Counted from the first letter of the stretch, positions 3,993-60,772 are shown. The stretch: DNA of 64,000 bases from Phycisphaerae bacterium (GCA_022072085.1 JAJVII010000014.1:67182-131181); one strand, 5' to 3'. Translations and numbers: made by a program. The notes: generated by a model not told the origin, from the letters alone.

Positions 3993-5837
3993 ATGGATGC
4001 GACGCTCGCGACAACCTGGATGACCTCGGCGACGGCCGGCTGGGCGATGCTTGCCCTGATCGGCCTGCCGCTGCTGGGCGTAGCCCTGATCGCGCTGGCG
4101 TCGATTGGGCGCGAACGGAGCGACCTGCCGGGCGGCGAGGACGCCGCGTCCGGGCGGCGCGTGCCGTTCGCGATTGCGCTGGCGACCAGCCTGGTCGTGC
4201 TGCTGCTGACGGCGGCGCTGGTGGCGGCCCACCTGTGCGACCCGAAGACGCTGTCGGGCAGCCACGAGTTTGCCGTCTGCTGGTTCGTCGGCGGCGGGCT
4301 CTACAGTTCGCTCAGCCTGTCGGTCGACGGCATCAGCGTCTGGCTGATCGCCCTGACCGCGGTGCTGATGCCGCTGGCCCTGATGGGGAGTTGGCACTCG
4401 ATCCGCCGACAGTGCGGGGTCTACTACGGTCTGATGATGCTGCTGCACGCCGCGATGCTGGGCGTGTTCCTCGTGCGCGATCTGCTGTGGTTCTACATCT
4501 TCTTCGAGTTCACGCTGATCCCGCTGTTTTTCCTCATCAGCCTGTGGGGCGGCTCGCAGCGCCGCCGGGCGGCCTACAAGTTCTTCGTCTACACGCTCGC
4601 CGGTTCGATGCTGACGCTGGCCGGCGTGCTCTACCTGGGCGTCAAGGCCGGTTCGTTCGACTTCAGGCTGGTCCGCCTCACGGCGTCGAGCCTGCCGCTG
4701 CGAGAGCAGGTGATCCTGTTCCTGGCGTTCTTCGCGGGGTTCGCGATCAAGGTTCCGCTGTTCCCGTTCCATACCTGGCTGCCGTTGGCCCACACCGAGG
4801 CCCCGACCGCCGGCTCGGTTATCCTCGCCGGCGTGCTGCTGAAGCTGGGGACCTACGGCTTCCTGCGGATCGGCATCGACTTCATGCCGGCGGCGGCGCT
4901 GGCGGTCGCACCGTGGATGGGCGGGCTCGCCGTCGCGGGCATCCTCTACGGCGCTCTGGGCGCGTGGGTGCAGAGCGACGTGAAGAAACTCGTCGCCTAC
5001 AGCTCGATCTCGCACCTGGGCTTCTGCATGTTGGGCCTGTTCGCCCTGCGGCCCGAGGCCCTCACCGGCGGCATTCTGGTGATGGTCAATCACGGCCTGA
5101 GCACCGGGGCCCTGTTCCTGGTCATCGGCATGATCTATGAACGCTACCACACGCGGCAGATGAGCGAACTGGGCGGGTTGGCCCGCCGCATGCCGGTCAT
5201 CAGCTTCTTCCTCGTGCTGTTCGCGCTCTCGTCGCTGGGCATGCCGGGCCTGAATGGCTTCGTCAGCGAGTTCCTGGTCCTGCTGGGCACGTTCGTCAGC
5301 GGCCGACCGGCCGGCGGCCTGCCGGCGACGCTGGGCATTGGCTTTGCCGCGGTGGCCGCCCTGGGCGTGATTCTGTCAGCCGTCTACCTGCTGCACATGG
5401 TCCGCCAGGTGGTCTTCGGCCAGTTGAAGGAGCCCGAGGTCCACGACGAGCCCTCGGCCCGCCTGCCGGCTGACGCGACGGGCCGCGAGTGGGCGATCAT
5501 GCTCCCGCTGGGCGTGCTGGTCGTGCTTCTGGGCGTCTGGCCGATGCCGATCACGCAGTCGATCCGCGGGCCGGTGGACGAAATCCTCAGCAACGTGGCG
5601 GCGACGCAGAAGACGCAGCCCGCCGAAAGAGCAGCGGCTGGCGCGCAGAAAGCAGGCGACGAGGAGATTTCAAATTGCGAATTGAAGATTGAAAATTGCA
5701 GATTGGGGGAAGACGGCCCGGTCGCCTCTGCCAATTTGCGGTTTGAAATTTTCAATTGTCAATTTTCAATTCCCCCTCGTCCCGCCGTTGCCGCAACCCC
5801 GCGGGCGTCCCGCATTCGAGAGGATTGCGCCCCGTGA
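3993..5837 (+). CDS. nuoM: NADH-quinone oxidoreductase subunit M, with an unusual ~80-aa C-terminal extension
   Basis: Antiporter-like subunit (FYIFFEFTLIPLFFLISLWGG...WLPLAHTEAPTAGSVILAGVLLKLG). ATG at 3993 chosen; an in-frame TTG at 3972 lies inside the upstream hairpin. Frame stays open through an AT-rich repeat region to TGA at 5835-5837, which overlaps the nuoN GTG. Confidence 0.8.
   Translation: MDATLATTWMTSATAGWAMLALIGLPLLGVALIALASIGRERSDLPGGEDAASGRRVPFAIALATSLVVLLLTAALVAAHLCDPKTLSGSHEFAVCWFVGGGLYSSLSLSVDGISVWLIALTAVLMPLALMGSWHSIRRQCGVYYGLMMLLHAAMLGVFLVRDLLWFYIFFEFTLIPLFFLISLWGGSQRRRAAYKFFVYTLAGSMLTLAGVLYLGVKAGSFDFRLVRLTASSLPLREQVILFLAFFAGFAIKVPLFPFHTWLPLAHTEAPTAGSVILAGVLLKLGTYGFLRIGIDFMPAAALAVAPWMGGLAVAGILYGALGAWVQSDVKKLVAYSSISHLGFCMLGLFALRPEALTGGILVMVNHGLSTGALFLVIGMIYERYHTRQMSELGGLARRMPVISFFLVLFALSSLGMPGLNGFVSEFLVLLGTFVSGRPAGGLPATLGIGFAAVAALGVILSAVYLLHMVRQVVFGQLKEPEVHDEPSARLPADATGREWAIMLPLGVLVVLLGVWPMPITQSIRGPVDEILSNVAATQKTQPAERAAAGAQKAGDEEISNCELKIENCRLGEDGPVASANLRFEIFNCQFSIPPRPAVAATPRASRIREDCAP
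5679..5771 (+). repeat. AT-rich inverted repeat inside the 3' end of the nuoM reading frame
   Basis: Arm 5680-5700 (aattgaagattgaaaattgca) matches the reverse complement of 5750-5771 (aattgaaaattgacaattgaaa) at 18 of 21 positions. G5 at 5705-5709 and C5 at 5772-5776. Several CAATTG-like cores. Strong local GC drop. Confidence 0.6.
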
Positions 5838-7495
5838 ACAGTGATCTGGCCAACCTGACGCTCGCGCTCCTGCCGGAGATCATCCTGCTGGTCGGGGCCT
5901 GCGTGCTGGTGCTGATCTTCAGCGGCGGACGGGCAGCCGAATCGCGGATGGGGCCGGGCTGGTTCGCGCTGGTCACGGTCGTCGCGGCGGCGGGGGCCCT
6001 GATGGCCCTGCCCACGCCGGTCTACACCGACGGGGCGATCCGGCTGACCCCCATCGCGCTGTCGGCCCGTTGGGCGTCGCTGCTGGTGGGCCTGCTGCTG
6101 ATTGCCGCCAACGGGCTGCTGCCCGAGTCGCGCCCCGGGCGCGACCTGGCCGACCGGGCCGCCCCCGAATTCTTCATGATGCTCCTGGCATCGCTGGCCG
6201 GCCTGATGGTCACCGCCGTCGCCAACGACCTGATCGTCCTGCTGCTGGCGCTGGAGCTGACCAGCGTGCCGACCTACATCGCGGTCGCGCTCAGTCGCCC
6301 GCAGGCCAAGGCCACCGAGGCCGGCGGCAAGTACTTCTTCCTCGGCGCCCTCTCGGCAGCGCTGCTGCTGATGGGGCTGGCCTGGCTCTACGGCGCGACC
6401 GGGACCACGCGGCTGGACGAGATGGTGTCGCTGCCGGTGTCGCTGTCGCCGACGGCGCTGATCGCGATGGGTCTGGCGGTGGCTGGGCTGGCGTTCAAGA
6501 TCGCCGCGTTCCCCTATCACGTCTACATCGCCGACGTCTACGAAGGGTCGGCTGCGCCCCTGGCCGGCTGGCTCGCCTTCGTGCCCAAGGCTGCGGGCCT
6601 GCTCGCGCTGGGCAAGCTGCTGGTCGCGGTCGGCGGGCCGATCCTGTTGGCCGGCGGGCAGCCGGGCGGCTGGACGACCCTGCCCGCGCTCAAGTGGACC
6701 GTCTGGGGCCTGGCGGCGGCGACCATGACCGTCGGCAACGCGATGGCCCTGTGGCAGAAGAGCATCAAGCGGATGTTGGCCTACAGTTCGGTCGCCCACA
6801 GCGGCTATCTGCTGGTCGCGCTGATGATCGTGCCGGTCGACGGCCAGGCCGTCGCGCCGGCGCTGCTGTTCTACCTGCTGGCCTACGGCGTGGCCAACCT
6901 CGGCGCGTTCATGGTGCTCAGTTCCATCCGCGCGCCGGAATCTTCTCCCTCTCCCTCTCAGGGAGAGGGCCGGGGTGAGGGTTCCCGCGGCGACCGCGAA
7001 GCCGAGACCTTCGCCGACCTCGCGGGCCTGGCCCGGCGGCGCCCGGCGCTGGCGATCGCGCTGGCCGTCTTCGGCTTCTCGCTGATGGGCCTGCCGCTGA
7101 CGATGGGTTTCGTCGGCAAGCTCTACGTCTTCAGTGCGGCGCTGCGGTCGGGCGAGTTGCTGGGGGCCGCGGGTTCGGGTTACACGCTGCTGGTGATCGT
7201 CGCCCTGGTCAACGCCGCCGTCGGCGCGGGCTACTACCTGCGGATGATCGCCGCCTGCTGGCTGGGCGAGCGCGAGGGCGACGCCGCCCCGACTGTCGAA
7301 CGCACCTCGCCGCGCGGCACGGTTTCGCACGGCGCGGTCATCGCGGTGCTGGCGGCCCTGACATTGGCGTTCGGCCTGGCCCCATTCCCCCTCCAGCGCA
7401 ACCTGGAAGAGGCCCCCCGCCGCCTGGCCCCCCCGACGACTTCGGCGTCGCAGTGTCCGGCGCCCGTAGCGGCATCCGTCGCCGACGGGCGCTGA
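5834..7495 (+). CDS. nuoN: NADH-quinone oxidoreductase subunit N
   Basis: GTG at 5834 overlaps the nuoM stop (GTGA). N-terminus VNSDLANLTLALLPEIILLVGACVLVL resembles NuoN N-termini. Multi-TM antiporter-like fold with a low-complexity insertion (SPSPSQGEGRGEGSRGD). The track start at 5756 is an upstream extension across the AT-rich region. Confidence 0.85.
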   Translation: MNSDLANLTLALLPEIILLVGACVLVLIFSGGRAAESRMGPGWFALVTVVAAAGALMALPTPVYTDGAIRLTPIALSARWASLLVGLLLIAANGLLPESRPGRDLADRAAPEFFMMLLASLAGLMVTAVANDLIVLLLALELTSVPTYIAVALSRPQAKATEAGGKYFFLGALSAALLLMGLAWLYGATGTTRLDEMVSLPVSLSPTALIAMGLAVAGLAFKIAAFPYHVYIADVYEGSAAPLAGWLAFVPKAAGLLALGKLLVAVGGPILLAGGQPGGWTTLPALKWTVWGLAAATMTVGNAMALWQKSIKRMLAYSSVAHSGYLLVALMIVPVDGQAVAPALLFYLLAYGVANLGAFMVLSSIRAPESSPSPSQGEGRGEGSRGDREAETFADLAGLARRRPALAIALAVFGFSLMGLPLTMGFVGKLYVFSAALRSGELLGAAGSGYTLLVIVALVNAAVGAGYYLRMIAACWLGEREGDAAPTVERTSPRGTVSHGAVIAVLAALTLAFGLAPFPLQRNLEEAPRRLAPPTTSASQCPAPVAASVADGR

Positions 7496-7652
7496 CGGCG
7501 GATTGCACCTTCCGCAGATTTCAGATCACAGGTAGAGTGGAACCGTTGCGTGAAACTTTTCGTCGCCGGCTGCGTCTGATCTTGCATGGACCGGCGGCGG
7601 TGCAAACGTCACTCATACCCAGGCTGGCCCGTGTTGGGGGCGCCGGGGGTAA

Positions 7653-7930
7653 GAATCTATCTCAATTGCCACGCGGGTCGCGACGACGGGTATTGCGGTC
7701 GCGGCCAAGGAGTCGAGGAGGAGTCGATACGGGACGGAGTATCGTCGACGACGAGCGACGCAGGCCGCGACCGCAAGACCCGCCGTCCCGGCGGGTTGGG
7801 CCGCAAAGGGCCCGTCTGCGGCGGCGCCGCTCCTGGACGATACTCAGTCTCGTATCGACTGCGTCGCGGCTTCTTGCATCCGGGCCCTTTGCGACCCAAC
7901 GCGATCCCGTGTGGCAATTGAGATAGATTC
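7653..7930. mobile_element. MITE-like non-autonomous element: 278 bp, 25-bp terminal inverted repeats, flanking TAA direct repeats, internally palindromic
   Basis: TIR-L 7653-7677 gaatctatctcaattgccacgcggg; reverse complement of 7906-7930 is gaatctatctcaattgccacacggg (24/25). TAA at 7650-7652 and 7931-7933. Interior shows further inverted symmetry and a central hairpin cccgccg-tcc-cggcggg (7779-7795). No transposase ORF. Confidence 0.6.
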
Positions 7931-7947
7931 TAAGGCAGGGGGCCTGA

Positions 7948-10900
7948 TTGACGATCCGGGGCGCCCTCATCGCGGGACTGCTGGCCGGCATGGCCGCGAC
8001 GGCCGTGCTGTCGGCTGGCGATGCGCCCATCCCGCCGCCGGCGTCGCCGCTCGCCGAACCCGCCCGCCGAGATGTCGTCGACGCCCTCCTGGCCCGCAGC
8101 CGCCTGCTCGGCGACGCCCGCTTCCAGATTCCCGTCGGCATCTATCGCCAGTATCTCATCGAGACGCAGCAGGCAGCCCCGCCGCCGGCTGACTTGATCC
8201 TCCCAGCGGCCCGATACGACCTGTCGGTGGACAAGGACCGCGCCGTCCGGCTGGCGGTCCGCATCGACCTGCTCGTGCTGGACGCGGACAAGGCCGCCTG
8301 GCTCGGCCTGCTCGACGCCGCGGTCGCGTGGGACGAGGTGAAGATCGACGGGCAGCCGGCGGTCATGCCCGCCCACCTGGGCCTGCTGCGGCTCGCGCCG
8401 CAGAAGGCCGGCGCCCACGTGCTGACGGCGTCGGCCCGGCTGCCGCGGTCGGCGGCCGCCGGCGGTCGGCTGGCGCTGGCGATTCCGTCCAGCGTGCAGA
8501 CGGCCGTTGCGTTCGACTCGCCCGGCGCGTGGGCGGTGTCCGCGGACGACGGTTTCGGCCGCCTGATCGGCGACGCAGCCGGCACGCGCGGGCGGCTGGC
8601 CCTGACGCCGCGGCAGAAGCTCGCGGTCGCCTGGTCGCCGCCGACCTCGGCGATGCAGCGCACGCCGCACTACATGCTCCGCGGCGACGTGGCCTGGAAC
8701 CTCGACGCCGGCGTGCAGCAGGTGACGGCCGACCTGGCGGTGACCATCGCGGCTGCGGCGTCCGACCGCGTCGTGCTGAACCTGCCGGCGGCTGCCGACC
8801 GCGTGAGCGTCACCGGCCCGGACGTGCGGCAGGCCGACGCCCGCGGCGGGCGGGCGACGGTGGACCTCCGCGGGCCGGTGCTGGGGACCACGCGGCTGAG
8901 GGTGGCCTTCGAGATGCCGGCGGCCGGCGACACCCGGACGCTGTCGGGCCTCGGGCTCGCGGACGGGCGGTGGTTCGACGGCACGCTGCTGGTGGGCAAC
9001 TCGGCCGGCGACTGCGAGGTCGTCGCCGACAAGACGGCCGGCCTGGAGGAGATCGCCCTGTCGCAGGCGCCGTCGTCCGCGGCGGCAATCCTCGCGGGCC
9101 CGGCGGTGCTGGCCTACCACATCAACGCCGGGGCCTTCTCGGCGACGGTCGAGAGCCTGACGCTCGGCGAGTTCGCCCTGCGGCAGTCCATCGCCGACCT
9201 GGCCCACTTCGAGGCGTTCGTCTCGCCCGACGGGGCGGCGCTCTGCCGGGCCCGCTACGAAATCCGCAACCGCAGCCAGCAGTTCCTCACGCTCCGCCTG
9301 CCCGCCGGGGCGACGGTGCTGGCGGTGCGGGTGAACGAGAACAGCGTGCCGCTTTCGCCGATCGCCGGCGAGGCCGGCGCCTACCGCGTCCAGCTCGAGC
9401 GTTCGACCGCGTCGGTGATCGGGCTGGTCAGTTTCCCGGTGGACGTCGCCTTCACGCAGCATGTGGAGCTGCCGCGGCCGGCCCGCCACCGGAAGGCGAC
9501 GTTGCGCGTGCCGATGCCGCGGATCGACCTGCCGATCGCCTACGCCTGGTGCGAGCTGTTCCTGCCCGGCGACCTGCGGGTGCGGACCCTCGCCGGGCCG
9601 ATGCGGCGGGTGGAGGAATACTCCAGCCAGACGGCCGGCGCGAGCCTGGACTACGGCCTGGGCACGATGGCGGCGGGCTACACGGCCGCCAACCGCCCGA
9701 CCGCCCCGGAGGTGGTCAGGCGCCCTACTGCCAACATGCCGGCCTTCGACATGGCGATCCACCGCGACCGCGGCGTCGAACTCGTGGCGCCGCCCAATGG
9801 CCCGGTGATGGAAGAGCCCAACGCCCCCCAGGTCGCTCTCCCGTCGCCGCCGGCTGTCACGCAGCCGGACCAGCCGCCGGCTACCGTGCGGGGCCAGCCG
9901 GACGGATACGCCAATCAGCAGGACCATGGCGTCCGGCTGCCCGGCGAATCGGACGTGACGCGCAACCTGGACGCCCCGCCGCCGCCGGTCCAGCCCGGCC
10001 AGCCGACGGGGGGGCCAACGACCCCCGTGCCGTCGGACACGCAGACGTTCACGAACAACAACACGCTGGACGGGCCCGGCGGCATGCAGGGGTCCCAGGC
10101 GCTGCTGGCCCGCAACTACTGGCGGGCGGGCAAGGAGGCCTACGACCGCGGCGATCTGTCCAACGCCACCGAGGCCCTGGGCAACGTGGTTCGGCTGGCC
10201 CCGCAGTCGGCGGAGGCCGACAACGCCCGTCGCCTGCTGGCCAACGCCAAGGTGCTCGAAGGCGGCTTCGAGTATGAGAGCAAGTCGCAGAAGGCGGCCG
10301 GCCTGGCGGTGCAGAAGGAGGCCGCCGTCAGCAACGCCGAGGCGTTCCAGGGCCAGGGGGAACTGCTGGAGCAGGCCAAGCAGGAGCTGCGCGAGGGCAA
10401 GGTCGCGTCAGCCAAGAGCAAGCTCCAGGCGGCCCGGTCGATGGGCCAGAAGCTCCAGACGCAGATGGGCGGCAATGCGGAACTGGATCTGCGCAACAAG
10501 TCGCTGGCGAAGTATTCCGAGGAGATCGAGAAGTCCGAGTCGGACGAAGCCAAGAAGTTGCGGATGAAGTTCGACGACCTTCGACGGTCCGGCCGATCGG
10601 AGGAGGCCTTCAGGACCGGCAAGCATCTGCTGACCCTGAACACCGCCGACGCCGACGAGGTCCGCAAGGAGATGGAAGTCCTGGCGGTGGAGTCGGCGGG
10701 CAAGAAACCGGCCACCCTTCAACAGCAGCCCTTGCCTGTGTTGATGCAGCGACATGCGGAGCCGGTCTACGAGCGGGATCTGTACTCGCCCTCCCGGCCT
10801 GAGGACCGGCGCGTGCTGGCGCCTCCGCCGATGGAGACGAATCTGACGGCCATTCGCCCGTCGCCCGACCAATCCAGCTCCCCGTTGCGAAGCGATGGCC

Positions 10901-13146
10901 GGGACGCTTGGGGCAACCTGCCGCAGCGCGACCGCGAGGATGTCGTGCAGAACCGGCTCGAGGCAGGCACGCCGACCACCCTCCGGTGGGCGCGGGTACA
11001 GGGGGCCGTCGGCGACCTCCTCCGCCAGGCCCGCGAGCAAATCAACCGGCCGGGCGGTGAATTGTCCGTGGACAACTTCACGCAGGCCCGCCAGTGGATC
11101 TCCCAGGCCCAGAACACCCTCAAGGCCAACGAAGATGTCTCGCCCGCGGCCGAGTTCCAGACGCGGATGCGGGAACTGGCTGACATGGAGCGGTTCATCG
11201 ACCAGCGACAGGAGCAATGGATCGCCACGCAGGTCCGCCGGGCGCAGCAGGCTGCCCGTCAGTCACAGCAACTCGACATAGCGGCTCGGACCCGAAGCGG
11301 CCCGGCTGAGGTGCGGACCTACAAGCTCTCCCATGCCGACGCGAGTGAGTTGGCCGACGCTTTGCACAACCTGTACAAGGCCTCTGGCGCGGGGCGGGGA
11401 GGGGCGGCTGCCCCCGAGGTTGTATTCTCGGCTGACCCGCAGACAAACGCTCTGATCGTGCGGGGCGATCCGCAGCAACTGAGGGACGCGGAGATGCTCG
11501 TCAGGCAACTCGACACAACGTCGCGCGCAAGCGCACTGGTCATGAAGGTCTTCCCTCTCAAGAACGCCAAGGCTCAGGATGTGGCGGAGGCGCTGAAGAA
11601 CTCCCTGGCCAAAATGCCGTCGGACGACGCCCGGCGGGTTTCCATCGTTGCCGATTCGAGGACCAATGCCATCGTTCTGAGCGGGCCGACGGAGGAATCC
11701 GCCAGGATTTCGCAACTGATCGACCAACTGGACCGAGCCGATGCCGGCGGGGGCGGGGGCGGCGGGGGTGGCGGGCTGACCTACGCCTACGACGTGCGGG
11801 ATCTGGTCCAGCCGCTGACCGACTTCCGCGTCCCGCTGACCGACCGCGATATCGCGCCCAACGCCCCGGCTGTCCATCCGGGCGGCACGCCGGCTGGCGG
11901 CGAGGGCGACAAGATCCTTGCCGACCAGGTCCGCCGGCTCGTCGGTGACAACGTGGAATTCACTGACGGGAACCTGGTCGTCCGCGGCACGCGGCAGCAG
12001 CAGGAGCAGGTCCGCGAGCTGATCGGCAAGCTCCGCGAGGTCCGCGGCCCGCAGGTGGACGTGAACGCCGGCCGATTCGCCCGCCAGAAGGTCGAGGGCC
12101 TGGTCAGCACCGATTACGACAAGGACGGCGTGACCTCTGACGACGTGAAGTTGGACGCCACTGATGGGTCCCGGTCACAGACTTTCTCGCTGCCCAGGTC
12201 GGGCCTCGTGCCCGCTCAGCCGGGCGAGGCCCGCAACCCCTTCCGCGCCACCTACGGCGTCGGCTTTATCTATGACCGAGATTTCAGCGGCGCGATCGAG
12301 AGCAGTTCGTCCAAGCCCGTGGACCCGCGGCTGAAGGAGTTCATCGACCGCAACTACGAGGCCGAGAGAGTTGGGGTCGTTTCGGGCGTGCGCATCAAAT
12401 GGCGCCGGGGTGAGACGAGTCATATCAGGGGCGGCCCGATAGATTACTGGCCCGTTGAATCTTCCACTGCCGGCGGTTCAACCGGCACGGCCGGCATGAT
12501 GAACATGAACACGGGTCCTCGCGATGAGGCGGCGCGCCTGGGATGGGACGCATACTCGCGGCCAGACCTCTCGAACGTCAGCGGGCTGGTCGAGCGGCTG
12601 CGGGACAACCTCGGCCAGAAGGTCGTGGTCAACAGCTTGAACCTGAACGTCGATCCGCGGGCGGCCCGGTCGCTGGGGGCGGATTTCGACACGCCGGTCA
12701 ACGGCGCCGCCGTCGCGGTCATCGACGAGGCCCAGTTCCGCGCCCTCCGCGAGCTCGACGTCAACGGCAAGGCCCGCGGGTCGGCCGTCGTCGGGCCCAA
12801 CGGGCGGATGCAGGAGACGATCGTCGGCACCGACGCGTCGCTCGCGAACGGCATGGCCGCCAACGAGGCCTACGCCGGCGAGGGCTACAACGATTTCCTC
12901 CTGGGCGACGCTCGCGTGCGGCTGGACCACGCGAAGTATCTGCTCATCGACAACGGCGGCTACCTGACGGTCATGCGGGCCGGGCCGATGCAGCACTGGA
13001 CCGAGCCGCCGGCTGACGTGCGATTTCCCGACGCCCCGCTGGTGATCGAAGTCCCGCGGCAGGGCGAGACCTACCGGCTGGAAAAGACGCTGATGACGCC
13101 GCAGGACGACCCCGCGGTGATCGTGGAATTCGAAATGGAAAACTGA
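7948..13146 (+). CDS. Giant secreted protein (1732 aa): N-terminal domain shared with the downstream paralog, Pro-rich and coiled-coil linkers, two secretin-N-like (GspD/PilQ N-domain-like) repeats, Gly10 tract, novel C-terminal domain
   Basis: TTG start giving a signal-peptide-like N-terminus (MTIRGALIAGLLAGMAATAVLSAGDA). Two consecutive ~65-aa repeats at about 11311-11740 (YKLSHADASELADALHNLY...VVFSADPQTNALIVRGDPQQLRDAEMLVRQLD and MKVFPLKNAKAQDVAEALKNSL...VSIVADSRTNAIVLSGPTEESARISQLIDQLD) match the Secretin_N pattern. No recognisable C-terminal secretin domain. Function unknown. Confidence 0.8.
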   Translation: MTIRGALIAGLLAGMAATAVLSAGDAPIPPPASPLAEPARRDVVDALLARSRLLGDARFQIPVGIYRQYLIETQQAAPPPADLILPAARYDLSVDKDRAVRLAVRIDLLVLDADKAAWLGLLDAAVAWDEVKIDGQPAVMPAHLGLLRLAPQKAGAHVLTASARLPRSAAAGGRLALAIPSSVQTAVAFDSPGAWAVSADDGFGRLIGDAAGTRGRLALTPRQKLAVAWSPPTSAMQRTPHYMLRGDVAWNLDAGVQQVTADLAVTIAAAASDRVVLNLPAAADRVSVTGPDVRQADARGGRATVDLRGPVLGTTRLRVAFEMPAAGDTRTLSGLGLADGRWFDGTLLVGNSAGDCEVVADKTAGLEEIALSQAPSSAAAILAGPAVLAYHINAGAFSATVESLTLGEFALRQSIADLAHFEAFVSPDGAALCRARYEIRNRSQQFLTLRLPAGATVLAVRVNENSVPLSPIAGEAGAYRVQLERSTASVIGLVSFPVDVAFTQHVELPRPARHRKATLRVPMPRIDLPIAYAWCELFLPGDLRVRTLAGPMRRVEEYSSQTAGASLDYGLGTMAAGYTAANRPTAPEVVRRPTANMPAFDMAIHRDRGVELVAPPNGPVMEEPNAPQVALPSPPAVTQPDQPPATVRGQPDGYANQQDHGVRLPGESDVTRNLDAPPPPVQPGQPTGGPTTPVPSDTQTFTNNNTLDGPGGMQGSQALLARNYWRAGKEAYDRGDLSNATEALGNVVRLAPQSAEADNARRLLANAKVLEGGFEYESKSQKAAGLAVQKEAAVSNAEAFQGQGELLEQAKQELREGKVASAKSKLQAARSMGQKLQTQMGGNAELDLRNKSLAKYSEEIEKSESDEAKKLRMKFDDLRRSGRSEEAFRTGKHLLTLNTADADEVRKEMEVLAVESAGKKPATLQQQPLPVLMQRHAEPVYERDLYSPSRPEDRRVLAPPPMETNLTAIRPSPDQSSSPLRSDGRDAWGNLPQRDREDVVQNRLEAGTPTTLRWARVQGAVGDLLRQAREQINRPGGELSVDNFTQARQWISQAQNTLKANEDVSPAAEFQTRMRELADMERFIDQRQEQWIATQVRRAQQAARQSQQLDIAARTRSGPAEVRTYKLSHADASELADALHNLYKASGAGRGGAAAPEVVFSADPQTNALIVRGDPQQLRDAEMLVRQLDTTSRASALVMKVFPLKNAKAQDVAEALKNSLAKMPSDDARRVSIVADSRTNAIVLSGPTEESARISQLIDQLDRADAGGGGGGGGGGLTYAYDVRDLVQPLTDFRVPLTDRDIAPNAPAVHPGGTPAGGEGDKILADQVRRLVGDNVEFTDGNLVVRGTRQQQEQVRELIGKLREVRGPQVDVNAGRFARQKVEGLVSTDYDKDGVTSDDVKLDATDGSRSQTFSLPRSGLVPAQPGEARNPFRATYGVGFIYDRDFSGAIESSSSKPVDPRLKEFIDRNYEAERVGVVSGVRIKWRRGETSHIRGGPIDYWPVESSTAGGSTGTAGMMNMNTGPRDEAARLGWDAYSRPDLSNVSGLVERLRDNLGQKVVVNSLNLNVDPRAARSLGADFDTPVNGAAVAVIDEAQFRALRELDVNGKARGSAVVGPNGRMQETIVGTDASLANGMAANEAYAGEGYNDFLLGDARVRLDHAKYLLIDNGGYLTVMRAGPMQHWTEPPADVRFPDAPLVIEVPRQGETYRLEKTLMTPQDDPAVIVEFEMEN

Positions 13147-25087: not shown

Positions 25088-28000
25088 CTACCTCAGGCCG
25101 ACCGTTTCGAAAGCCGCCGTGATCCCCGCTGCCAGGGCCGTCACGTGCGGCGGGCGCAGCAGGGTGAAGTGCCCGCCCGGCAGCGTCGCGACGCGGACCG
25201 CAGCCGACGACGCGTCCGACCATTCGCCGTCGCGGTCGCCGCCGCCGCCGGCCAACGGGTCGGCCGCCCGCCACTGAAACACCGGGGCTGCCAGCCGGAT
25301 CACGCCGGGCGAGGCCGCCAGGTCGCCGTGATGCTCCAGCAGTTCCAGCCGCCGGCTCATCAGGTCGGCCGGCATGCCCGCCGGCAGCATCCTGCGGTCG
25401 GTGTACCACTGCACGAGCCTCGCGGCCCGCTCGGCCCGCGGGTGCGAACGCAACGACTCATCCAACTCAACGACCTCGCGCACCGCCTGCGCGGTCATGC
25501 TGTTGTCCGCACTTCCGGCGTTAAGCAGGTCGGCGATCGCGTCGGCCGAGTTGCGGGCGATACCCTCGCGCAGCGCCGCGCTGGGGCGGCTGGTGTCGAT
25601 CAGGCCGACGAAGCCTACCGCCCGCCCGCTCCGCTCCAGCGCCTGGGCCACCTTGATCGCGAAGACCCCGCCGATCGACCAGCCGGTCAGGCAGCAGGGG
25701 CTCGCCGGCTGCATCGCGCGGATGCGGGCGGCGTAGTCGTCGGCCAGCGCGTCCAGCGTCGCGTGCTCGATGTCCGTGCGGCCGCCGTCGGGCGCCCGGC
25801 AGTCGATGCCGTAGACCGTCCGCCCGGGCGTCAGGGCGTCGGCCAGGGCGCGGTAGACCGCCACCCCGCCGCCGCCGGCGTGGATGCAGAACAGCGGCGT
25901 CCGCTCGCCGTGGGACCGCAACGTCACGACGGCGGGCGAATCGGCTGCGGCCGGGGCGGCGGCGGACCGCTCGGTGGCTGCCGACTCCGGCGACAGTCGG
26001 CCCAGGATCAGCCGCGAGAGCTGTGACACGCTCGGCCCGCTCATCACCTCCATCGTCTGAAGGTGCACGCCCAGGCTGCTCTCGATCCAGTTGCCCAGCT
26101 CCACGGCCATCAGCGAGTCCAGCCCCAGGTCGGTCAGCGAGCGGTCGATGTCGAGCTGCTCGGCGGACTGGCCGAGCACGCCGGCGATCTGCGTCCGCAT
26201 CGCCGCCAGCAGCAGCGCGGGGCGATCGGCCTGGTCGGCCGCAAGTACCGCACGGCGGAGTTCTTCCGACTCGCCCGAGGTAGCCGGTCCGCTGTCGGAG
26301 TCGGCTGGGCAGACGAACTCGAACTTGGTCGCCCCGAGGCCCTTCTCGCGCATCCGGGCGCCGTATCTAGCCCAGTCCATGTTGCAGACGGTCAAGTGGG
26401 TCGCGTCGGCGGACATGCAGCGGCCCAGCGTGTCCAATGCCTGCGTCGGGGTGAAACCGGCCAGACCGAATGACTTGAACCGCTCGGCCACTTCCGGCGC
26501 CGCGGCGACTGTGCCGACCTCGGCGAGATAGCCCCAGTTGATCGACAGGCCGGGCAGTCCGCGGGCCCGGCGACGGGCGGCCAGCGAATCGAGCACCGCG
26601 TTGGCTGTGGTGTAGTTGGCCTGGCCGGCTGTCCCGACCACAGTCGAGATCGACGAGAAGAGCACGAAGTGGTCGAGCCGCCGGTCGGCCGTCATGCGGT
26701 GCAGCAGCATCGCACCGACGACCTTGGGGCGATAGACCTTGAGGAACGTCGCCTCGTCCAGGTCTGCCATCAGAGTGTCGTCGAGCACCATAGCCGCGTG
26801 GAACACGCCGCGCAGCGTCGCGCCCGGCGCCTCGGCCGCCGCCAGGGCGCGGGCCACGTCGTCGGGCTTTGTCACGTCGCCGAGGACCTCGACGACGGTT
26901 GCGCCGCGGGCGCGCATGGCCTCGATCTGATCGCGCGACCGCCGGTCCGGCGGGCCCTTGCGCCCCATCAGCACGACGTGCCGCGTGCCGCGCTCGACCA
27001 GCCAGCCGGCCAGCAGCAGCCCGAACCCGCCGAACCCGCCGGTGACCACGCAGGCGTCGCCCGGGGCCAACTGCGGGTGCGACTGCGATCCGACGACGGC
27101 GTTCAGCCGGTGGTCGCGCAGCGTCAGCACGAGCTTGCCGATGTGGCTGCCCCGGCTCAGGGTGGCCAGCGCTGCCGAGGCGGAGGCCATCGTCATCGGG
27201 CGATAGGGCAGCGGGCGGTAATCGCCGGCGGCGATGCGGTCGGCGACGGCGGCGTTGAGCCGGCGCACCAGGTCGGCCCGCGTCCGCATCGCCAAGTCCA
27301 GGTCGATCGAGAATACCGCGATGTTCTTGCGGAACGGGGCCAGGCCGATCGGCCGGTCGGCGTAGATGTCACGCTTGCCGATCTCGACGAATCGGCCGAA
27401 CGGGGCGAGCACCGCCAGCCCCTTGGCGATGGCTTCGCCCGCGAGGCTGTTGAGCACGACGTCGACGCCCGTGCCGCAGGTGGCGTCCATCACGTCGGCC
27501 GCCCAGCCGAGCGTGCGCGAGTCCAGCACGTGCCGCACGCCCAGGCGGCGGAGGAACTCACGCTTCTCCGGCGTGCCGGCGGTCGCGAGGACCTCCGCGC
27601 CTACGGAGCGGGCGATCTGCACCGCCGCCAGGCCGACGCCGCCGGCGGCCGAGTGAATCAGCACCTTCTCGCCGCGGCCGAGGCCGGCCTTGTCGATCAG
27701 CGCGTGATGGGCGGTCATGAAGGTGACCGGCATCGTTGCGGCGGCGACCATGGCGATGTCGTCGGGCGCGGGCATCAGGGCGTGCGCGGGCAGCAGGACG
27801 TGCGTTGCGAAGCAGCCCGGCCCAGCCGCCATGACGCGGTCGCCGACGCGCACGCCCGCGACCTGCGGGCCGACGCGGCGGACGACGCCCGCGCATTCGA
27901 TGCCCAGGCCCAGCTCGCCCGGCGCCAGGCCCGGGTAGATGCCCAGCACCTTCATCACGTCGGAGAAGTTGATGCCGGCGGCGTGGACCTCGACCTCGAC

Positions 28001-31000
28001 CTGGCCGACGCCCGGCGCCGGTCGCAGCCGCTCGTGGATACGGACGTTGGCGAACTCGCCGGTGCGCGACATGCCGACAGCAGCGGCCCGCGGCGGGTCG
28101 GGGTCGGCGGACGGGAACGGCCGAGTCAGCGCAGCCCGCACCAGCCGGTGGGCGAACCGTTGGCCGCCACGGACGGCGACCTCTTCGTTGTCGTCGCCGT
28201 CAGCCAGTTCGCGGGCCAGAACGTCCGCGTCGTCGTCGGCTGCGGGATCCAGGTCGATGATCGCAGGTCGGTAGTTGGGGAACTCGTTGGCCAGCGTGCG
28301 GGCCAGGCCCCACAGCCCGGCCTGGAGGGGTGCGGTCGGCTCCGCCGGTCCGGTCACCGGCTGGGCGCCGCGGGTCGCCAGCCACAGCCGCGGAGCCTGC
28401 TGGCGGGCGGAAAGTTCGCGGGCCAGATCGCAGAGGGCGACGCCGGTAGCCCGAGCCGCGTCATCGACGTCGGCCGGCGCGGCGTCATCGGGATCGGGCA
28501 GGTCGAGGGCCCAGAGATGCACGACGCCGCGCAGCGGCGCCTGCGGATCGGCGGCGGCAGCCTCGATCGCGCGGGCGATGCCGTCGCAGTTGGCGCCGTC
28601 GGCACGCCGGAGCAGCGTGCAGGTGTCGCTCTGCGCCGTCAGCCGCGACGCCAGCGCCTCGGCTGTGCCGCCGGCGTCGGCGAGGATCAGCCAACTGCCG
28701 GACGTGGCTGCGTCGGTCTCGGCGGGCGCAGCTGCGGGCTCATCCGGCGCAGCCGCCTGCGGCGGTGCGCTCGGCCCGCGGGCCAGCAGCACCACGCCGT
28801 CCAGCATCGCGTCGCTGCTGTGCGGCGGGACGTACTCGTGGATGTCGGTGAAGCCCTGTTCCCCCAGCAGCGTCCGCCAGCGGTCCAGCGGCAGGGTCAC
28901 GTGGGCAGGCCGCAGGTCTCGGTCGCGGAACCGCCACCAGCCGTCGAGCATGCCGAAGACAAGATCCGTCCAGCGGAGCGGGGCGGTGAGTTCCGTGAAA
29001 ACGATCACGCCGCCGGGGGCCAGCACCCGCCGGACGTTGGCCAGCGTCGCGCGGAGGTCCGCGGTGGCGTGCAGCACCAGCGGCGCCATCACCACGTCGA
29101 AGCCGCCGGGCGCGAACCCCTGGCTGATCGGGTCGGATTCGATGTCCAGCGTCTGGTAGCGGACGAAGGGGTAGCCGCGGAACCGCTGCTCGGCGTGCGG
29201 GAGGAAATGCCGCGACACGTCGGTGAAGACATAGTCGACCGGGCAGTGCCGGGCGGCCTCGGCGACCGCGGGCAGCACGTAGGCCGTCGTTCCGCCGGTG
29301 CCCGCGCCGATCTCCAGCATCCGCACCGTCCGCCGCGGCGGGGCCGCCCAGAGGATGCGCGCTACCAGGTCCTGGATCAGCAGGTTGCACTGCCGCATGC
29401 CCGGCGAATCCTGGTAGAGCCCCTCGGCGGCTGCGGTGTCGCCGCCGGGGAAGAGCAACTCCAGCGGATCGACTCGGCCGACCAGCACGCCGGCCAGGTT
29501 CCGCCCGCAGCGGTCGATCAGACGCAGGCGGGCCGCGGCGGCCGGGTGGTCGGCGACCAGGGCGCGCCAAACGGCGTCCACGTTGCAGGGCGGTTTCATG
29601 TCCGCCGGCGCGACGCGGCCGTCCGCGCCGAGCGCGACGATGCCCTCGGCTGCCGCGATCTCCAGCAGCCGTCGCCAGAGCTTCGCGTGCCCGTCGGTCA
29701 CCCCCAGCCGCTGCCGCAGCGACTCGATCTCCGCCGGTCCGTCGGCCAAGGCGTCGGCAAACCGCAGGTCGGCCAGCGCGTTTGCGATGTAGCCGGCGCA
29801 CAGCCCGTCAACCTCCGGCATCTCCGGGTCGAAGGGCGTCGCGTTCCACGTCGCCCGCCCGCCCGCGGCGATGTCGGTCAGTCCGCCCAGGCCCGCCAGC
29901 GCCGGCGGCGTCGGATCGCCCGGCAGCGGCGCGGGGAACCAGCGGAACTCGAACAGCAGGTCCTCGACCGTCGTCCCGCGGCTCTCGCCCGCGGGCGCGA
30001 CGGACCGGCAGCGCAGGCCGCGGATTTCCACCAGCCGTCGACCGCCGTCGTCGAGCACCGCCAGCGACGCGGTCAGTTCCTCCGCGCGACGGGCGACGTC
30101 GTACACGTGGCACCAGAGCGGCCGACCATCCAGCGGACCGGTGACGCTCATGCGATCGACGGCCACGGGCAGGTAGCAGGCGCCGGCTTCAGCGGCCGAT
30201 TGGCTGGGCGTCGCGCCAAGGACGGCCTGAAGGCAGGCGTCCAGGATCGCGGGGTGAACGTGGAACGCGCCGGCTGCTGCCGCTGCGGCGATGGGCGGCG
30301 ACGGGACGATGCGGGCCAGCGCCTCGCCGGGCCCGCTGAACAGCCGCTCGATGCCGCGGAACGCCGGGCCGTATTCCAGCCCCTGCTCAGCCAGCCGGGC
30401 GTAGCACTCGTCCGGGCCGATCTCGACAGTGCAGCGGGCGCGAATCGCCGCCAGCTCCGCCTGGCCGGACGCGTCGGCCTCAGCGCTCGCGGCGGGCAGT
30501 CCGGGCAGCGCCTTTCCGTCGGCGTGCAGTTGCCAGGGGTCGCCGCCGCTCTCGGCGCTCGATCGGCCGAACACGCGGAACGTCAGGCCCACCGGATCGA
30601 AGGTGGTGCATACGCTGCGGCCGGTTGCGCCGGGGAACATCGCGCGGTGGAACTGAACGTTCTCGACGACCACGCCCGTGCCGGCGTTGGGCTGCTGGGC
30701 CCGCACCGCGGCCGCCAACTCGAGGTAGGCCGCCGCGGGGAAGACCACCTGGCCCTGCACGCGGTGGTCAGTGAGGAAACCCGTCGCTTCACCGGCGGCT
30801 TCGATCGTCTGCTCCCACGCGGGCAGGGGCAGGCCCATCGGACAGCCGAGCAGGGGGTGGGCTTCGCCGTCGCGGGTCAGCACGCGCAGGCTGCCGGGGC
30901 TCTGGAACCAGTGCCGCGCCCGGTCCCACGGGTGCAGCGGCAGCGGTACCCGGTCGGGCCCGCGGCCGAGCAGGCCCGTCCAATCCAGCGCGACGCCGGC

Positions 31001-57416: not shown

Positions 57417-59525
57417 ATGAGCAAGAAAGCCAGTCCCGCCCGCAAGGGCAAGTCCAAGTCAAAGTCGCCGCGCAAGGCTCTGCAAGCCGAGTCGGCCCCG
57501 CCGCCCAAGCCGCCCGCGCCGCCGCGCGCCCGCAAGTCGGCTGCCCCCGAGACAGCCGAGTCGATGGCTGTCCAACAGAAGGAGATCGCGGTCAGCGAGT
57601 TCTTCGCCAAGAACCGCCACCTGCTCGGGTTCGACAACCCGCGCAAGGCCCTGCTGACCTGCGTGAAGGAGGCCGTCGACAACTCGCTGGACGCCTGCGA
57701 GGAGGGCGGCATCCTGCCGGAAATCTGGGTCATCATCGAGCCGGCCAACGGCAACGGGTCGGCCGCCGGCGGCGAGGCGAAGAAGACCGCCGACGCCCCG
57801 CTGACCGGCCTGGCGTCGGGCAAGGGCGGGGCGAAGGAGGAGACCCAGCCCTCGCTGCTGGAGACCGTGCATCCCGAGATCGCCCAGTCGGTCTCGACCT
57901 CGCTGGCGAACGTCACGCGCTTCCGCGTCACTGTCCGCGACAACGGGCCGGGCATCGTCAAGGCGCAGATCCCCAACATCTTCGGCCGACTGCTCTACGG
58001 TTCCAAGTTCCACCGGCTGCGGATGAGCCGCGGGCAGCAGGGCATCGGCATCTCGGCGGCCGGCATGTACGGCCTGCTCACAACCGGCCAGTCTGTCGAG
58101 ATCATCTCGCGCACGGGCCGCAAGAAGCCGGCCCACCGCTTCGAGCTTCAGATGGACACGCGGAAGAACCGCGCCGAGATCATCAAGGACCAGGAGTTGG
58201 CGAACTGGCCGAGGTTTACCGTCAGTGATGCCGACGCCGCGCCGGCTGAGCCCGAGGAAGTCGAACACGGCACCGAGGTGCGGATCGTGCTGGAGGCCCG
58301 GTTCCAGCGCGGCCGTGCGTCCGTGGACGAATACATGGAGCAGACCGCGATCGCCAACCCGCACGCGGAGATTCACTACATCGCCCCCGATGGCGCCCGG
58401 CGGGATTTCCCGCGCGAGGTGAACGAGGTCCCCGCCAGCCCGGCGGCGATCAAGCCGCACCCCTACGGCGTCGAACTGGGCGTTCTGATCCGCATGCTCA
58501 AGGAAACGAAGCACAAGCACCTGGGCGGGTTCCTCCAGAAGGAGTTCTCGCGCGTCTCGCTCAAGGTCGCCCAGGAAATCTGCGCCAAGGCCGGCCTGAC
58601 CACGCTGACCTGGTGCTCGCAGGTCGTCCGCGACCAGGCCGACCGGCTGCACGCGGCCATCCAAGGGACGAAGATCATGGCCCCGCCGACCAACTGCCTG
58701 GTGCCGATCGGACCGCAGCAGATCCTCAAGGGGCTGCTCAAAGAGATCAAGGCCGAGTTCTGCTGCGCCGCGACGCGCGACCCGGCCGTCTATCGCGGCA
58801 ACCCGTTCCAGATCGAGGTCGGCCTGGCCTACGGCGGGCAACTCCCCGCCGACGACAGCGCCCGCGTGATCCGCTTCGCCAACCGCGTGCCGCTCCTCTA
58901 TCAGCCATCGGCCTGCGCGATCACCAAGAGCGTCGTGGACGTAGGCTGGCGGAACTACGCCCTCAGCCAGCCGCGCAACAGCGGGCCCGAGGGGCCGCTG
59001 GTCATCTTCGTTCACATGGCCAGCGTCTGGGTTCCGTTCACCAGCGAGTCCAAGGAGGCCGTCGCCGGATACGACGAGATCGCCAGGGAGATCAAGCTGG
59101 CGCTCCAGGAGTGCGGCCGCAAGCTCAGCCTCTACATACGCCGACGCCAGCACGCCGCCCGCGAGGGCCAGCGGCGGCACGTTTTCGAGCGGTACATCGG
59201 CGAGGTCGTCAACGCCTGCGGCAAGATGATCCGTGTCAACCGCAAGCAGCTCTACGCCGAACTCCAGGCCGTCGCCAAACGCCGCACCGCCAAGGCCGAC
59301 GAGCGGTTCGACGAGAACGGCAACCCGATCCGCCCCGGCCGCGACGAGTTGGCTGCCGATGCGAACGTCGTGGTAATCGAGTCCAACGCTCCCGAGGCCG
59401 ACGCCGATGCCGTCGTGCCGGCAGCCGTCCCCGACGCCGACAAGCCCAAGGCCGGCCGAAAGGGCGCAGCCGCGAAGAAGTCCCGCGCCGCCCGGGGCCT
59501 GTTCGACGAGAACGAGGGCCAATGA
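57417..59525 (+). CDS. top6B: DNA topoisomerase VI subunit B (GHKL/Bergerat ATPase) with Lys-rich SPKK-like N- and C-terminal tails
   Basis: Bergerat-fold N-box FFAKNRHLLGFDNPRKALLTCVKEAVDNSLDACEE, G-rich lid VRDNGPGIV...GQQGIGISAAGMYG, transducer region. N-tail MSKKASPARKGKSKSKSPRKA...; C-tail ...DKPKAGRKGAAAKKSRAARG. Upstream TTGGCG-N17-TAGAAT. Confidence 0.85.
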   Translation: MSKKASPARKGKSKSKSPRKALQAESAPPPKPPAPPRARKSAAPETAESMAVQQKEIAVSEFFAKNRHLLGFDNPRKALLTCVKEAVDNSLDACEEGGILPEIWVIIEPANGNGSAAGGEAKKTADAPLTGLASGKGGAKEETQPSLLETVHPEIAQSVSTSLANVTRFRVTVRDNGPGIVKAQIPNIFGRLLYGSKFHRLRMSRGQQGIGISAAGMYGLLTTGQSVEIISRTGRKKPAHRFELQMDTRKNRAEIIKDQELANWPRFTVSDADAAPAEPEEVEHGTEVRIVLEARFQRGRASVDEYMEQTAIANPHAEIHYIAPDGARRDFPREVNEVPASPAAIKPHPYGVELGVLIRMLKETKHKHLGGFLQKEFSRVSLKVAQEICAKAGLTTLTWCSQVVRDQADRLHAAIQGTKIMAPPTNCLVPIGPQQILKGLLKEIKAEFCCAATRDPAVYRGNPFQIEVGLAYGGQLPADDSARVIRFANRVPLLYQPSACAITKSVVDVGWRNYALSQPRNSGPEGPLVIFVHMASVWVPFTSESKEAVAGYDEIAREIKLALQECGRKLSLYIRRRQHAAREGQRRHVFERYIGEVVNACGKMIRVNRKQLYAELQAVAKRRTAKADERFDENGNPIRPGRDELAADANVVVIESNAPEADADAVVPAAVPDADKPKAGRKGAAAKKSRAARGLFDENEGQ

Positions 59526-59662
59526 GCCCCCGTTTTTCGAGCCTATCCAGCGGCTTCCGCCGCCGGCTCGCGGAGACCGGGGGACGCCGCCCGGTGAAGC
59601 GGTCGGCAAACCGGCGCCCACGCAACGGGCGATCGAACGTTGTTTAGCGAAGGAATCGTTTC

Positions 59663-60772
59663 ATGGCCAAGCAGACTCGCAAGCGACACGCCGCGACGGG
59701 CAAGAAACTCCAGGGGCTGGCCCAATCCGTCGTCAAGGCCGCCCACGCCAAGCGCGACCCGGGCATCGTCATCCCCACGCGGGCCCTGTCCAACTCGGTC
59801 TACGACGCCAAGCGCAAGATCATCACGATGGGCAAGGGCAGCCAGACGCGGACCTTCTTCAACTTGGGCATGGCCCGCAAGTTCATGCAGACGATGCTCA
59901 TCGCCTCCGGCTGCAAGGAACTCAACGACCAGGGCAAGACAACCAGTATCCGCGACCTGTTCTACCACTGCAAGCACACCATCGAGGGCACGCGCGAGAA
60001 CACATTCGACGAGCAGTCCGAGAGCGACCCGATCATCGAGGACCTCGAAGTCGCCATCGGCAGCCTGCGCGAGGAACTGGGCCTGTTCGCCGAGAACAAG
60101 GGCTCGATGGTCGGGCCGATGACCATCGTCGACGCCGGCGACACGATCGACCTTCGGCGGATGGGCAGCGGCGGCTGGTCCGTGCCGTCGATCGTTGAAT
60201 CCGACGTCATCCAGTTCCGCAAGCACGAAGCCCGGTACGTCCTGCTGATCGAGAAGGCCGCCATCTGGAAACGGTTCAACGAGGACCGCTTCTGGGACAA
60301 GCACAAGTGCGTCATCCTGCACGGCGGAGGCCAGCCGCCGCGCGGCGTCCGCCGCCTGCTCTTCCGCCTGCACAACGAACTCAAGCTGCCGGTCTACGTC
60401 CTGACCGACAACGACCCCTGGGGCTACTACATCTACAGCGTCGTCAAGCAGGGCTCGATCAACCTGGCGTTCGAGAGCGAGCGGATGGCCGTCCCGCGGG
60501 CACGGTTCGTCGGCATGAGCAGCTTCGACGTCGGGCGATTCGACATCGACTCCAGCGTGACGATCGCCCTGAAGGACGAGGACCGCAACCGGGCCCGCGA
60601 GATATTGAAATACCCCTGGTTCGCCGACAAGCGGGAGTGGAAGCGCGAGATCGAACAGATGCTCAAGACCGGCGTGAAGCTGGAACTGGAAGCCCTCTCC
60701 AGCAAGGACTTCTCCTTCATCACCCAGACCTACCTGCCGCGCAAGCTCAAGGACAAGCAGTGGCTGGACTGA
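59663..60772 (+). CDS. top6A: DNA topoisomerase VI subunit A (Spo11/Top6A-like: winged-helix + Toprim)
   Basis: Candidate catalytic Tyr in IRDLFYHCKH. Toprim acidic residues (VLLIEKAAIW; YVLTDNDPWGYYIY, the DxD motif). 369 aa. 138 bp downstream of top6B on the same strand. Confidence 0.85.
   Translation: MAKQTRKRHAATGKKLQGLAQSVVKAAHAKRDPGIVIPTRALSNSVYDAKRKIITMGKGSQTRTFFNLGMARKFMQTMLIASGCKELNDQGKTTSIRDLFYHCKHTIEGTRENTFDEQSESDPIIEDLEVAIGSLREELGLFAENKGSMVGPMTIVDAGDTIDLRRMGSGGWSVPSIVESDVIQFRKHEARYVLLIEKAAIWKRFNEDRFWDKHKCVILHGGGQPPRGVRRLLFRLHNELKLPVYVLTDNDPWGYYIYSVVKQGSINLAFESERMAVPRARFVGMSSFDVGRFDIDSSVTIALKDEDRNRAREILKYPWFADKREWKREIEQMLKTGVKLELEALSSKDFSFITQTYLPRKLKDKQWLD

Follow-up and report, generated by a model that had tools for sequence, protein, structure and literature searches.

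A palindromic insertion upstream of a secretin gene in a Phycisphaerae bacterium is probably an old member of a TA-flanked repeat family with IS5-type ends and a conserved Y-shaped core

Correia elements of Neisseria and the RUP repeats have terminal inverted repeats (TIRs) of about 25–26 bp and a TA duplication, lie between genes and near them, and form hairpins in transcripts. REPINs are not known to have target-site duplications or inverted ends of the insertion sequence (IS) type, and depend on a RAYT gene. The IS427/IS1031-like group of the IS5 family is characterized by ends that begin with G-purine and by a TA/TNA duplication of 2–4 bp. For the IS1031 group, a 3-nt duplication is a described feature (PMC2516522). 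Here, we analyze a 278-bp palindromic element at positions 7653–7930 of a 64,000-nt stretch of DNA from a Phycisphaerae bacterium (GCA_022072085.1, JAJVII010000014.1:67182–131181), which is called the window throughout. The element lies in the 450-bp gap between nuoN and a secretin gene. We consider it a miniature inverted-repeat transposable element (MITE), a diverged and probably old copy of a family that was found neither in Rfam 15 nor in a limited literature search, and we put the probability of this reading at roughly 0.8. A non-autonomous transposable element had already been proposed from the sequence alone (the sequence-only reading). That proposal gained support, because the interior of the element is homologous to a TA-flanked family whose ends match those of a TA-duplicating IS5-family IS. 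As a kind, the MITE is well known, and the structure-conserving core common to two phyla is the only unusual aspect.

The sequence across the element runs gggggTAA/GAATCTATCTCAATTGCCACGCGGG ... CCCGTGTGGCAATTGAGATAGATTC/TAAggcagg. The TIR arms (7653–7677 and 7906–7930) match at 24 of 25 positions, and their outer 20 nt are identical. This outer 20-mer occurs twice in the window, both times at the ends of the element, and no TIR match was obtained in any of 100 shuffled controls, even with up to 3 mismatches allowed. The element is small and non-coding: indels among its relatives are not multiples of three, and the stems account for its full length. The 278-bp extent, the 25-bp TIRs with one mismatch and the TAA on both sides, all described in the sequence-only reading, were thus borne out by the sequence and by the shuffles.

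A sensitive blastn search of the whole element against plasmids returned one meaningful match, on a Variovorax paradoxus megaplasmid (72% over 123 nt, E 4e-5). The match covers the second of the two internal hairpins (P3, see below), which is the part most conserved across phyla. The V. paradoxus locus has a perfect 25-nt TIR of wholly different sequence (GGGCCTGTTAACGCTATGGAAGGGG), followed by the motif GGGTCGCGA and by two hairpins split by TCCC..GGGTT; CCGTCTGCGGCG is located in the second hairpin and CAACGCGATCCC precedes the right TIR. A search pattern for the core (CCGTCTGCGGCG N55–85 AACGCGATCCC), toward which the recovered members are biased, was found at no fewer than 114 loci (at least) in the GTDB representative genomes and on one contig in IMG/VR. 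The junction-only pattern GGGTCGCGA..CAACGCGATCCC gave no matches in viral contigs.

Among the matches listed, to which the following counts refer, 92 were good copies with TIRs matching at 22 or more of 25 positions (91 relatives and the window copy), and 75 of the 92 are 264 or 266 bp long. The carriers are Variovorax, Acidovorax, Xenophilus, Delftia, Ottowia, Comamonas, Diaphorobacter and Giesbergeria. Three copies came from one Planctomycetota metagenome-assembled genome (MAG) and one unclassified MAG, with a third TIR type (GCAGCCCGTTGAAAAAGTGCCGGGG); two copies are located in MAG bin.47. A hidden Markov model (HMM) built without the window sequence matched positions 7675–7908 with E 2.2e-17, and a model built from Comamonadaceae copies only matched 7748–7910, a range that includes P3, with E 1.5e-11. 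By these matches, the window element is clearly recognizable as a homologue of a multi-copy, TA-flanked repeat family, with its architecture intact.

Eleven pattern matches in other phyla (Opitutae, Gemmatimonadota, Alphaproteobacteria, Woeseiaceae, Micromonosporaceae, Acidobacteriota, Deltaproteobacteria and Eremiobacterota) had neither TIRs nor an HMM match, and were discarded as chance occurrences in GC-rich DNA. A truncated family copy was seen at the very end of an IMG/VR contig classed as viral (IMGVR_UViG_3300039239_000039, L007 3–188). It could be a vehicle of horizontal spread or a mis-binned host fragment.

Copies of the family normally lie between TA flanks. TA stands on both sides of 55 of the 92 good copies, including that of the window; the left flank is CTA in 48/92 and the right flank TAG in 51/92, so that the usual form is C-TA/.../TA-G. 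In the non-CTAG cases, the third base of one flank neither repeats nor complements that of the other, and the family duplication is therefore TA with a preference for CTAG. A 4-bp CTAG duplication and an assignment of the flanks to the stem were both rejected for this reason. Variovorax sp. MHTC-1 holds 17 full copies at different loci, which are 96.3–100% identical (median 98.5%). The family has been amplified recently in some genomes. It also includes internal-deletion derivatives of 164–249 bp.

Several single loci deserve mention. At one site of two V. paradoxus megaplasmids, with flanks 97.9% identical, 2u118 carries a full 264-bp element (L005 1376–1639), and SPNA7 a 49-nt mini form (L006 585–633) that retains both TIRs without the interior. 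The TAG stop of the upstream gene at this site is formed by the TA flank and the first G of the element. A palindrome of 17 nt in Variovorax sp. MHTC-1 (L042 7918–7936; GGCCTGTTCACAGGCCC, with TA after it) corresponds to fused outer TIR ends and is probably an extreme remnant of internal deletion. Several Acidovorax copies (L009, L033, L075 and others) are flanked by CA...TC, not by TA...TA, and have similar neighboring sequence (..CCA/ /TCGCCC..). This suggests that they spread inside a larger repeated unit or share an old insertion. Regular expressions aimed at isolated ends and at longer elements within the 8-kb loci were uninformative.

A short-query blastn search with the Comamonadaceae end matched two Pseudomonas aeruginosa plasmids. 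The IS on P. aeruginosa pWTJH2 is about 825 bp long (L122 3004–3828), starts with GGGCCTGTTAACGCTAATT, ends with GTGTTAACAGGCCC and is flanked by C-TA/../TA-G. It splits another transposase open reading frame (ORF), and excision of the IS plus one TA restores the frame exactly, which proves the TA duplication for this IS. Its two ORFs match PF13340 (DUF4096), DDE_Tnp_1_2 and NCBIfam NF033580 (IS5 family), with coding sequence continuing across a frameshift. Relatives with 80–85% amino-acid identity reside on plasmids of Polaromonas, Variovorax, Ralstonia, Cupriavidus and Burkholderia. The IS of Variovorax sp. SRS16 (L124) has the ends GGGCGTGTTAACACTAATTG and GGGTCTGTTAACAC within the same C-TA and TA-G flanks, and its end is identical at 19 of 20 positions to MITE stems such as GGGCCTGTTAACACTAATTTCG. 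The sharing is limited to the first ~20 nt, and the core of the MITEs bears no relation to the interior of the IS. This comparison shows that the Comamonadaceae copies carry an IS5-family terminal repeat as their outer ~20 nt.

An IS630/Tc1 assignment, inferred at first from the TA in CTAG, was rejected: the matching IS belongs to the IS5 family (NF033580, PF13340) and not to DDE_3/IS630. As a separate observation, the pWTJH2 IS is nested in a larger transposase gene (L122 2244–4455), about 1.6 kb from the tmexC/tmexD3 efflux genes, which AMRFinderPlus annotates as tetracycline class.

Three types of TIR, and hence of the P1 stem that they form, occur on one core (GGGCCTGTT.., GCAGCCCGTTGAA.. 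and GAATCTATCTCAA..). In the alignment, the outer 9 nt of the window end (GAATCTATC) differ from the Comamonadaceae end (GGGCCTGTT) by transitions only; our own estimate of the probability of such a pattern is ~0.002, assuming a chance of 1/2 per position of identity or transition. The window TIR is therefore plausibly a diverged IS5-type end that would have changed in concert on both arms. Its GAATC... ends with TAA flanks, as well as the GGGCC... or GCAGCC... ends of the relatives with TA flanks, were found to agree with the G-purine start and TA/TNA duplication of the group. The TAA duplication proposed in the sequence-only reading remains a candidate, TAA being present on both flanks. Since the family duplicates TA, the site can also be read as TA plus one extra base; either form is acceptable in view of the 3-nt duplication known from the IS1031 group. 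The same reading had suggested looking for a transposase with matching TIRs elsewhere. Such an IS was found for the Comamonadaceae ends (in L122 and L124), and none with the window-type TIR in any collection scanned.

The fold of the element turned out to be more elaborate than the single long hairpin with a symmetric interior described from the sequence alone. The interior consists of two separate hairpins, one built on A/A' (7679–7706 and 7763–7790, 89% complementary) and the other on C/C' (7792–7819 and 7876–7903, 86%). The apical parts B/B' of the two hairpins are 75% complementary to each other, which makes either a rod or a Y-shape possible. With RNA parameters, the rod is slightly preferred on the + strand (–184.6 vs –178.5 kcal/mol). 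The Y-shape is the minimum-energy fold on the – strand and, with DNA parameters, on both strands. A consensus structure was derived from 19 aligned diverse members, the window copy included. It is a three-way junction made of P1 (the TIR stem with GGGG/CCCC and UCGCG/CGCGA), P2, a short conserved linker and P3. In the window, its parts and surroundings lie as follows.

7650–7652, no strand: left flanking TAA, candidate target-site duplication (3-bp TAA, or TA with one extra A).
7653–7677, + strand: left TIR, the 5' arm of stem P1, GAATCTATCTCAATTGCCACGCGGG; 24/25 complementary to 7906–7930, unique within the window, aligned with the P1 arm of the family.
7675–7683, + strand: left junction motif GGGTCGCGA, invariant in 19/19 aligned diverse members and outside the search pattern.
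7679–7790, + strand: hairpin P2 (unit 1), with basal stem 7679–7706 / 7763–7790 and a purine-rich middle.
About 7725–7745, + strand: apical mini-hairpin of P2.
7786–7797, + strand: inter-hairpin linker TCCC..GGGTT; TCCC and GGGTT are invariant alignment columns.
7792–7903, + strand: hairpin P3 (unit 2), with basal stem 7792–7819 / 7876–7903 and CCGTCTGCGGCG at 7812–7823.
7897–7908, + strand: right junction motif CAACGCGATCCC, from the alignment of members.
7906–7930, – strand: right TIR, the 3' arm of P1, with the 24/25 match.
7931–7933, no strand: right flanking TAA, candidate target-site duplication.
7934–7950, + strand: purine-rich Shine-Dalgarno-like GGCAGGGGG and the TTG start (7948), outside the element, in the context of the Secretin_N gene.

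The linker forms a mini-helix (alignment columns 159–165), which is equivalent to the central GC hairpin noticed from the sequence alone. Within the right junction, AACGCGATCCC is invariant because the search pattern required it; no such requirement applied to the C before it or to its pairing with the left junction.

The pairing of the consensus is supported by changes on both sides in 60 of 94 pairs, as compared with 17–25 in slid controls. Paired cells amount to 95.4%, and to 35–46% when the partners are slid by 1–3 columns. The covariation score is 0.47 (0.06–0.08 in the slid controls), and none of 500 shuffles reached the observed pairing or covariation values. Compensatory changes were found in 19 of the 21 pairs of helix 3 of the family consensus (P2). 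In P1 and in the basal stems of P2 and P3, G:T mismatches (26) and A:C mismatches (25) are about equally frequent, so a strand-specific tolerance of G:U was not seen. One-sided pair changes are almost absent, and one-sided changes from G-C to G-U nearly so. Watson-Crick pairing is therefore kept on both strands, as expected from constraint or correction at the DNA level and not in a transcript. These results point to a fold that matters, or is regenerated, in DNA, where it would take the form of hairpins or of a cruciform while the DNA is single-stranded or supercoiled. Species pairs were compared at five orthologous sites: the elements are 96.6, 97.7, 96.6, 89.8 and 97.0% identical, and the flanks about 95, 94, 94, 82 and 93%; compensatory double changes are visible.

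With the above results in hand, the way in which the element moved can be outlined. We infer mobilization by an IS5-family DDE transposase from the identical ends of MITE and IS. Acting in trans, such a transposase would bind the outer ~13–20 bp of each TIR, excise the element and insert it at TA/TNA with duplication of the site. The window copy would have landed at a TA(A) immediately upstream of the secretin ribosome-binding site. The part between the TIRs is a conserved core that is not IS-derived, composed of the two hairpins and the three-way junction (GGGTCGCGA, TCCC..GGGTT and CAACGCGATCCC). The window copy is probably old and solitary; its inner stems are 86–89% matched, as compared with near-perfect stems in recently amplified copies. 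It is most likely without a dedicated function. Its main consequence, if any, would be felt by transcripts that run into the secretin gene from upstream: a highly stable structure of about 280 nt would precede the Shine-Dalgarno sequence, and might shield the gene from read-through out of nuo or alter how strongly it is expressed.

A number of observations weigh against the MITE reading. The exact outer 20-mer of the TIR had no match in representative genomes (185,579 species, one genome each), a 19-mer across the left flank and the TIR (TAAGAATCTATCTCAATTG) had none in IMG/VR, and a 37-mer found nothing relevant in PLSDB. In the JGI metagenomes, the exact 20-mer gave two chance matches, both inside coding sequences, where GTGGCAATTGAGATAGATTC encodes VAIEIDS. 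The multiple copies by which the sequence-only reading would have confirmed mobility thus failed to appear: the window TIR is unique in all collections scanned, and therefore neither further copies nor a cognate transposase are known for this variant. The window itself holds one copy in 64 kb, the family profile has no other match in it even at E 10, and a search of the phage collection gave no match. No empty site is at hand, as the two relatives' loci examined carry other genes downstream of nuoN; identity to the nearest NuoN homologues does not exceed 57%, and the relatives whose loci were examined stand at 57% and 47%. Where the element is absent, the junction is expected to read GGGGGTAAGGCAGG. 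The window flank is TAA while that of the family is TA, and the window target does not resemble CTAG. The family copies are found between convergent genes in 23 cases, in co-directional pairs in 22 and 10, and between divergent genes in 7; convergent pairs are over-represented, and the co-directional pairs (22 vs 10) show a mild and not decisive orientation bias among copies that are not independent of each other. Finally, the core is conserved beyond the need of a passive MITE interior, which hints at a function of some kind.

This last point can be taken further. The core may be a functional DNA-structure module that a host or transposon protein recognizes in single-stranded or cruciform form, that has been fitted with different IS5-type ends across phyla, and whose stems are kept by hairpin-templated correction. 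We regard this as possible though unlikely. If true, the family would be a vehicle for a structured nucleic-acid element and not a plain deletion-type MITE. Either way, the family lends itself well to studying why the interiors of certain MITEs are conserved and by what means the two arms of a palindromic repeat stay alike.

A rival explanation holds that the three-way-junction core is the selected unit, a DNA or RNA structure with a function at the level of the host or the element (for example, a replication or repair signal, a transcription insulator or a transposition enhancer), and has been re-equipped with IS5-type ends lineage by lineage. The same core with three P1/TIR sequences, its lack of relation to the interior of the partner IS, the higher identity of element than flank at the orthologous sites with their compensatory double changes, and an unrelated Burkholderia stagnalis MITE that shares the ends and likewise combines a TIR stem with two hairpins all speak for it. 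However, the three TIR types may be one diverged ancestral end, given that the outer 9 nt of the window differ by transitions only. The conservation can also be explained by selection of copies competent for transposition, by gene conversion among them or by hairpin-templated repair, and the member set is biased by the search pattern. We hold this explanation to be improbable.

A structured RNA would act either in cis, as a regulatory 5' leader ahead of the secretin gene, or as an independent small RNA, with the DNA repeat character as a secondary feature; it would account for the very strong predicted stability of the region (z against shuffles –10.5 for the + strand, –11.5 for the – strand). 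The extensive covariation, the junction nucleotides kept across two phyla, the position directly before a Shine-Dalgarno sequence and start codon, the mild orientation bias relative to neighboring genes, and the slower evolution of orthologous copies than of their flanks fit it as well. Against this stand the balanced G:T and A:C counts and the near lack of one-sided G-C to G-U changes, a Watson-Crick pattern on both strands that is atypical of RNA. Copies lie in all gene contexts, with TA flanks and IS-type termini, and one genome has 17 near-identical copies at unrelated loci. Rfam 15 gave no match at E ≤ 1 for window positions 7000–8600, and none at the gathering score for 10 member loci. 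A promoter that the element might supply to the secretin gene, as suggested in the sequence-only reading, received no support: no sigma-70-like site facing the gene was found, nor was a promoter-like site on the + strand inside the element. An RNA of this kind is accordingly a poor candidate, with the odds strongly against it.

Among the weaker explanations is an inverton, in which the 25-bp repeats would be recombinase sites and the 228-bp segment between them a switch that phase-varies the secretin gene. Repeats of suitable length around a segment of ~230 bp directly upstream of a surface or secretion gene invite the idea, but no recombinase or invertase domain was detected among the 23 window proteins scanned, the homologues are dispersed high-copy repeats in every gene context with TA flanks and IS5-type ends, and no promoter-like site was found inside the repeats on the + strand; it is extremely improbable. 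Equally negligible is a REPIN/REP-like element moved by a RAYT (IS200-like) transposase, or a palindrome created by assembly: the element is a hairpin-forming palindrome with compensatory evolution of the kind described for REPINs, and assembly or amplification can produce long hairpins as chimeras, but TA duplications and DDE-type IS5 termini characterize the family copies (no screen of these genomes for a RAYT gene or a conserved GTAG motif was made), and the imperfect arms (24/25, 89%, 86%) and the homology to independent genomes rule out the artefact. An attC-like site was likewise discarded, since GTTGGGC...ACCCAAC stands in the wrong order for attC.

The right end of the element at 7930 is located 17 nt 5' of the TTG at 7948, as had been noted from the sequence, so that a very stable DNA and RNA structure lies 3 nt from the secretin ribosome-binding site. 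The product of the secretin gene (7948–13146) has 1732 aa, two Secretin_N domains and a plausible signal peptide. Upstream, nuoN (Proton_antipo_M) ends at 7495; its product is identical to database protein P0001 (553 aa, 100%), implying a GTG start at 5834. On the MITE reading, the nuoN–secretin gap is mostly a transposon insertion and not a native regulatory region. The statement in the sequence-only reading that the window encodes no transposase agrees with the Pfam scan, where no transposase domain was found among 23 window proteins, a few large or unannotated ORFs lying outside the scan.

Three further features of the window were recorded. A second imperfect palindrome of ~100 nt, AT-rich within a window of ~70% GC, occupies 5655–5790 at the 3' end of the nuoM ORF, where it is read through as a C-terminal extension before the nuoN start at 5834. 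Repeats with ATTG in them (AAATTGCGAATTGAAGATTGAAAATTGCAGATTGGGGG ... CCCCC-side mirror) make up this palindrome, whose fold is a single long hairpin (z –5.65) and which has only CAATTG in common with the 278-bp element. It looks like another small inserted palindromic element. Adjoining genes at 57417–60772 encode topoisomerase VI subunits B (Topo-VIb_trans, HATPase_c) and A (TP6A_N, Toprim), a pair that is, to our knowledge, uncommon in bacteria. Another very large ORF (2844 aa), supported by GC content at third codon positions, lies on the – strand at 25088–33622.

The family traced here is abundant in Comamonadaceae, where some Variovorax genomes hold dozens of copies, and present in Planctomycetota; it has IS5-type ends and an unusually conserved Y-shaped core. 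It can also serve as a masking and annotation marker in high-GC genomes. Among known systems, it resembles most closely the MITEs that depend on IS5-family elements (IS427/IS1031-type, DUF4096 and DDE). The G-purine start of the TIR, the small size of ~265–280 bp, the lack of coding capacity and the 2–3-bp TA/TNA duplication in family copies are shared with these MITEs, and about 19 of the first 20 nt of the Comamonadaceae subfamily are shared with the IS5-family IS of Variovorax and Pseudomonas plasmids. In contrast to them, the interior of the family is an unrelated three-way-junction module and not a deletion derivative of an IS, its core is common to Pseudomonadota and Planctomycetota, and the window copy has its own TIR sequence that corresponds to no known IS.

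Correia elements and RUP are similar in TIR length, TA duplication, intergenic position near genes and hairpin formation. Unlike them, the family is larger, its termini match the IS5 family and not IS630/Tc1-type IS, and it has two extra internal hairpins with a conserved junction; evidence for a promoter or an IHF site was not found in it. REPINs and REP-BIME are likewise dispersed palindromic repeats that are enriched between convergent genes and whose stems are kept by compensatory changes, whereas the present family has TA duplications, DDE-type IS ends and a three-way junction in place of a single hairpin. The repeat of the Burkholderia stagnalis chromid (L123 1503–1789, ~287 bp), which has a 29-nt TIR (GGGCCTGTTCACGCTAATAACGGGCTTGC), shares the terminal sequence GGGCCTGTTCACGCTAAT.. 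and the TIR stem with two internal hairpins. The sequence between these ends is unrelated and contains none of the motifs GGGTCGCGA, CCGTCTGCGGCG and CAACGCGATCCC. It is therefore a separate MITE family on the same IS ends, and the design of a TIR stem plus two hairpins recurs independently.

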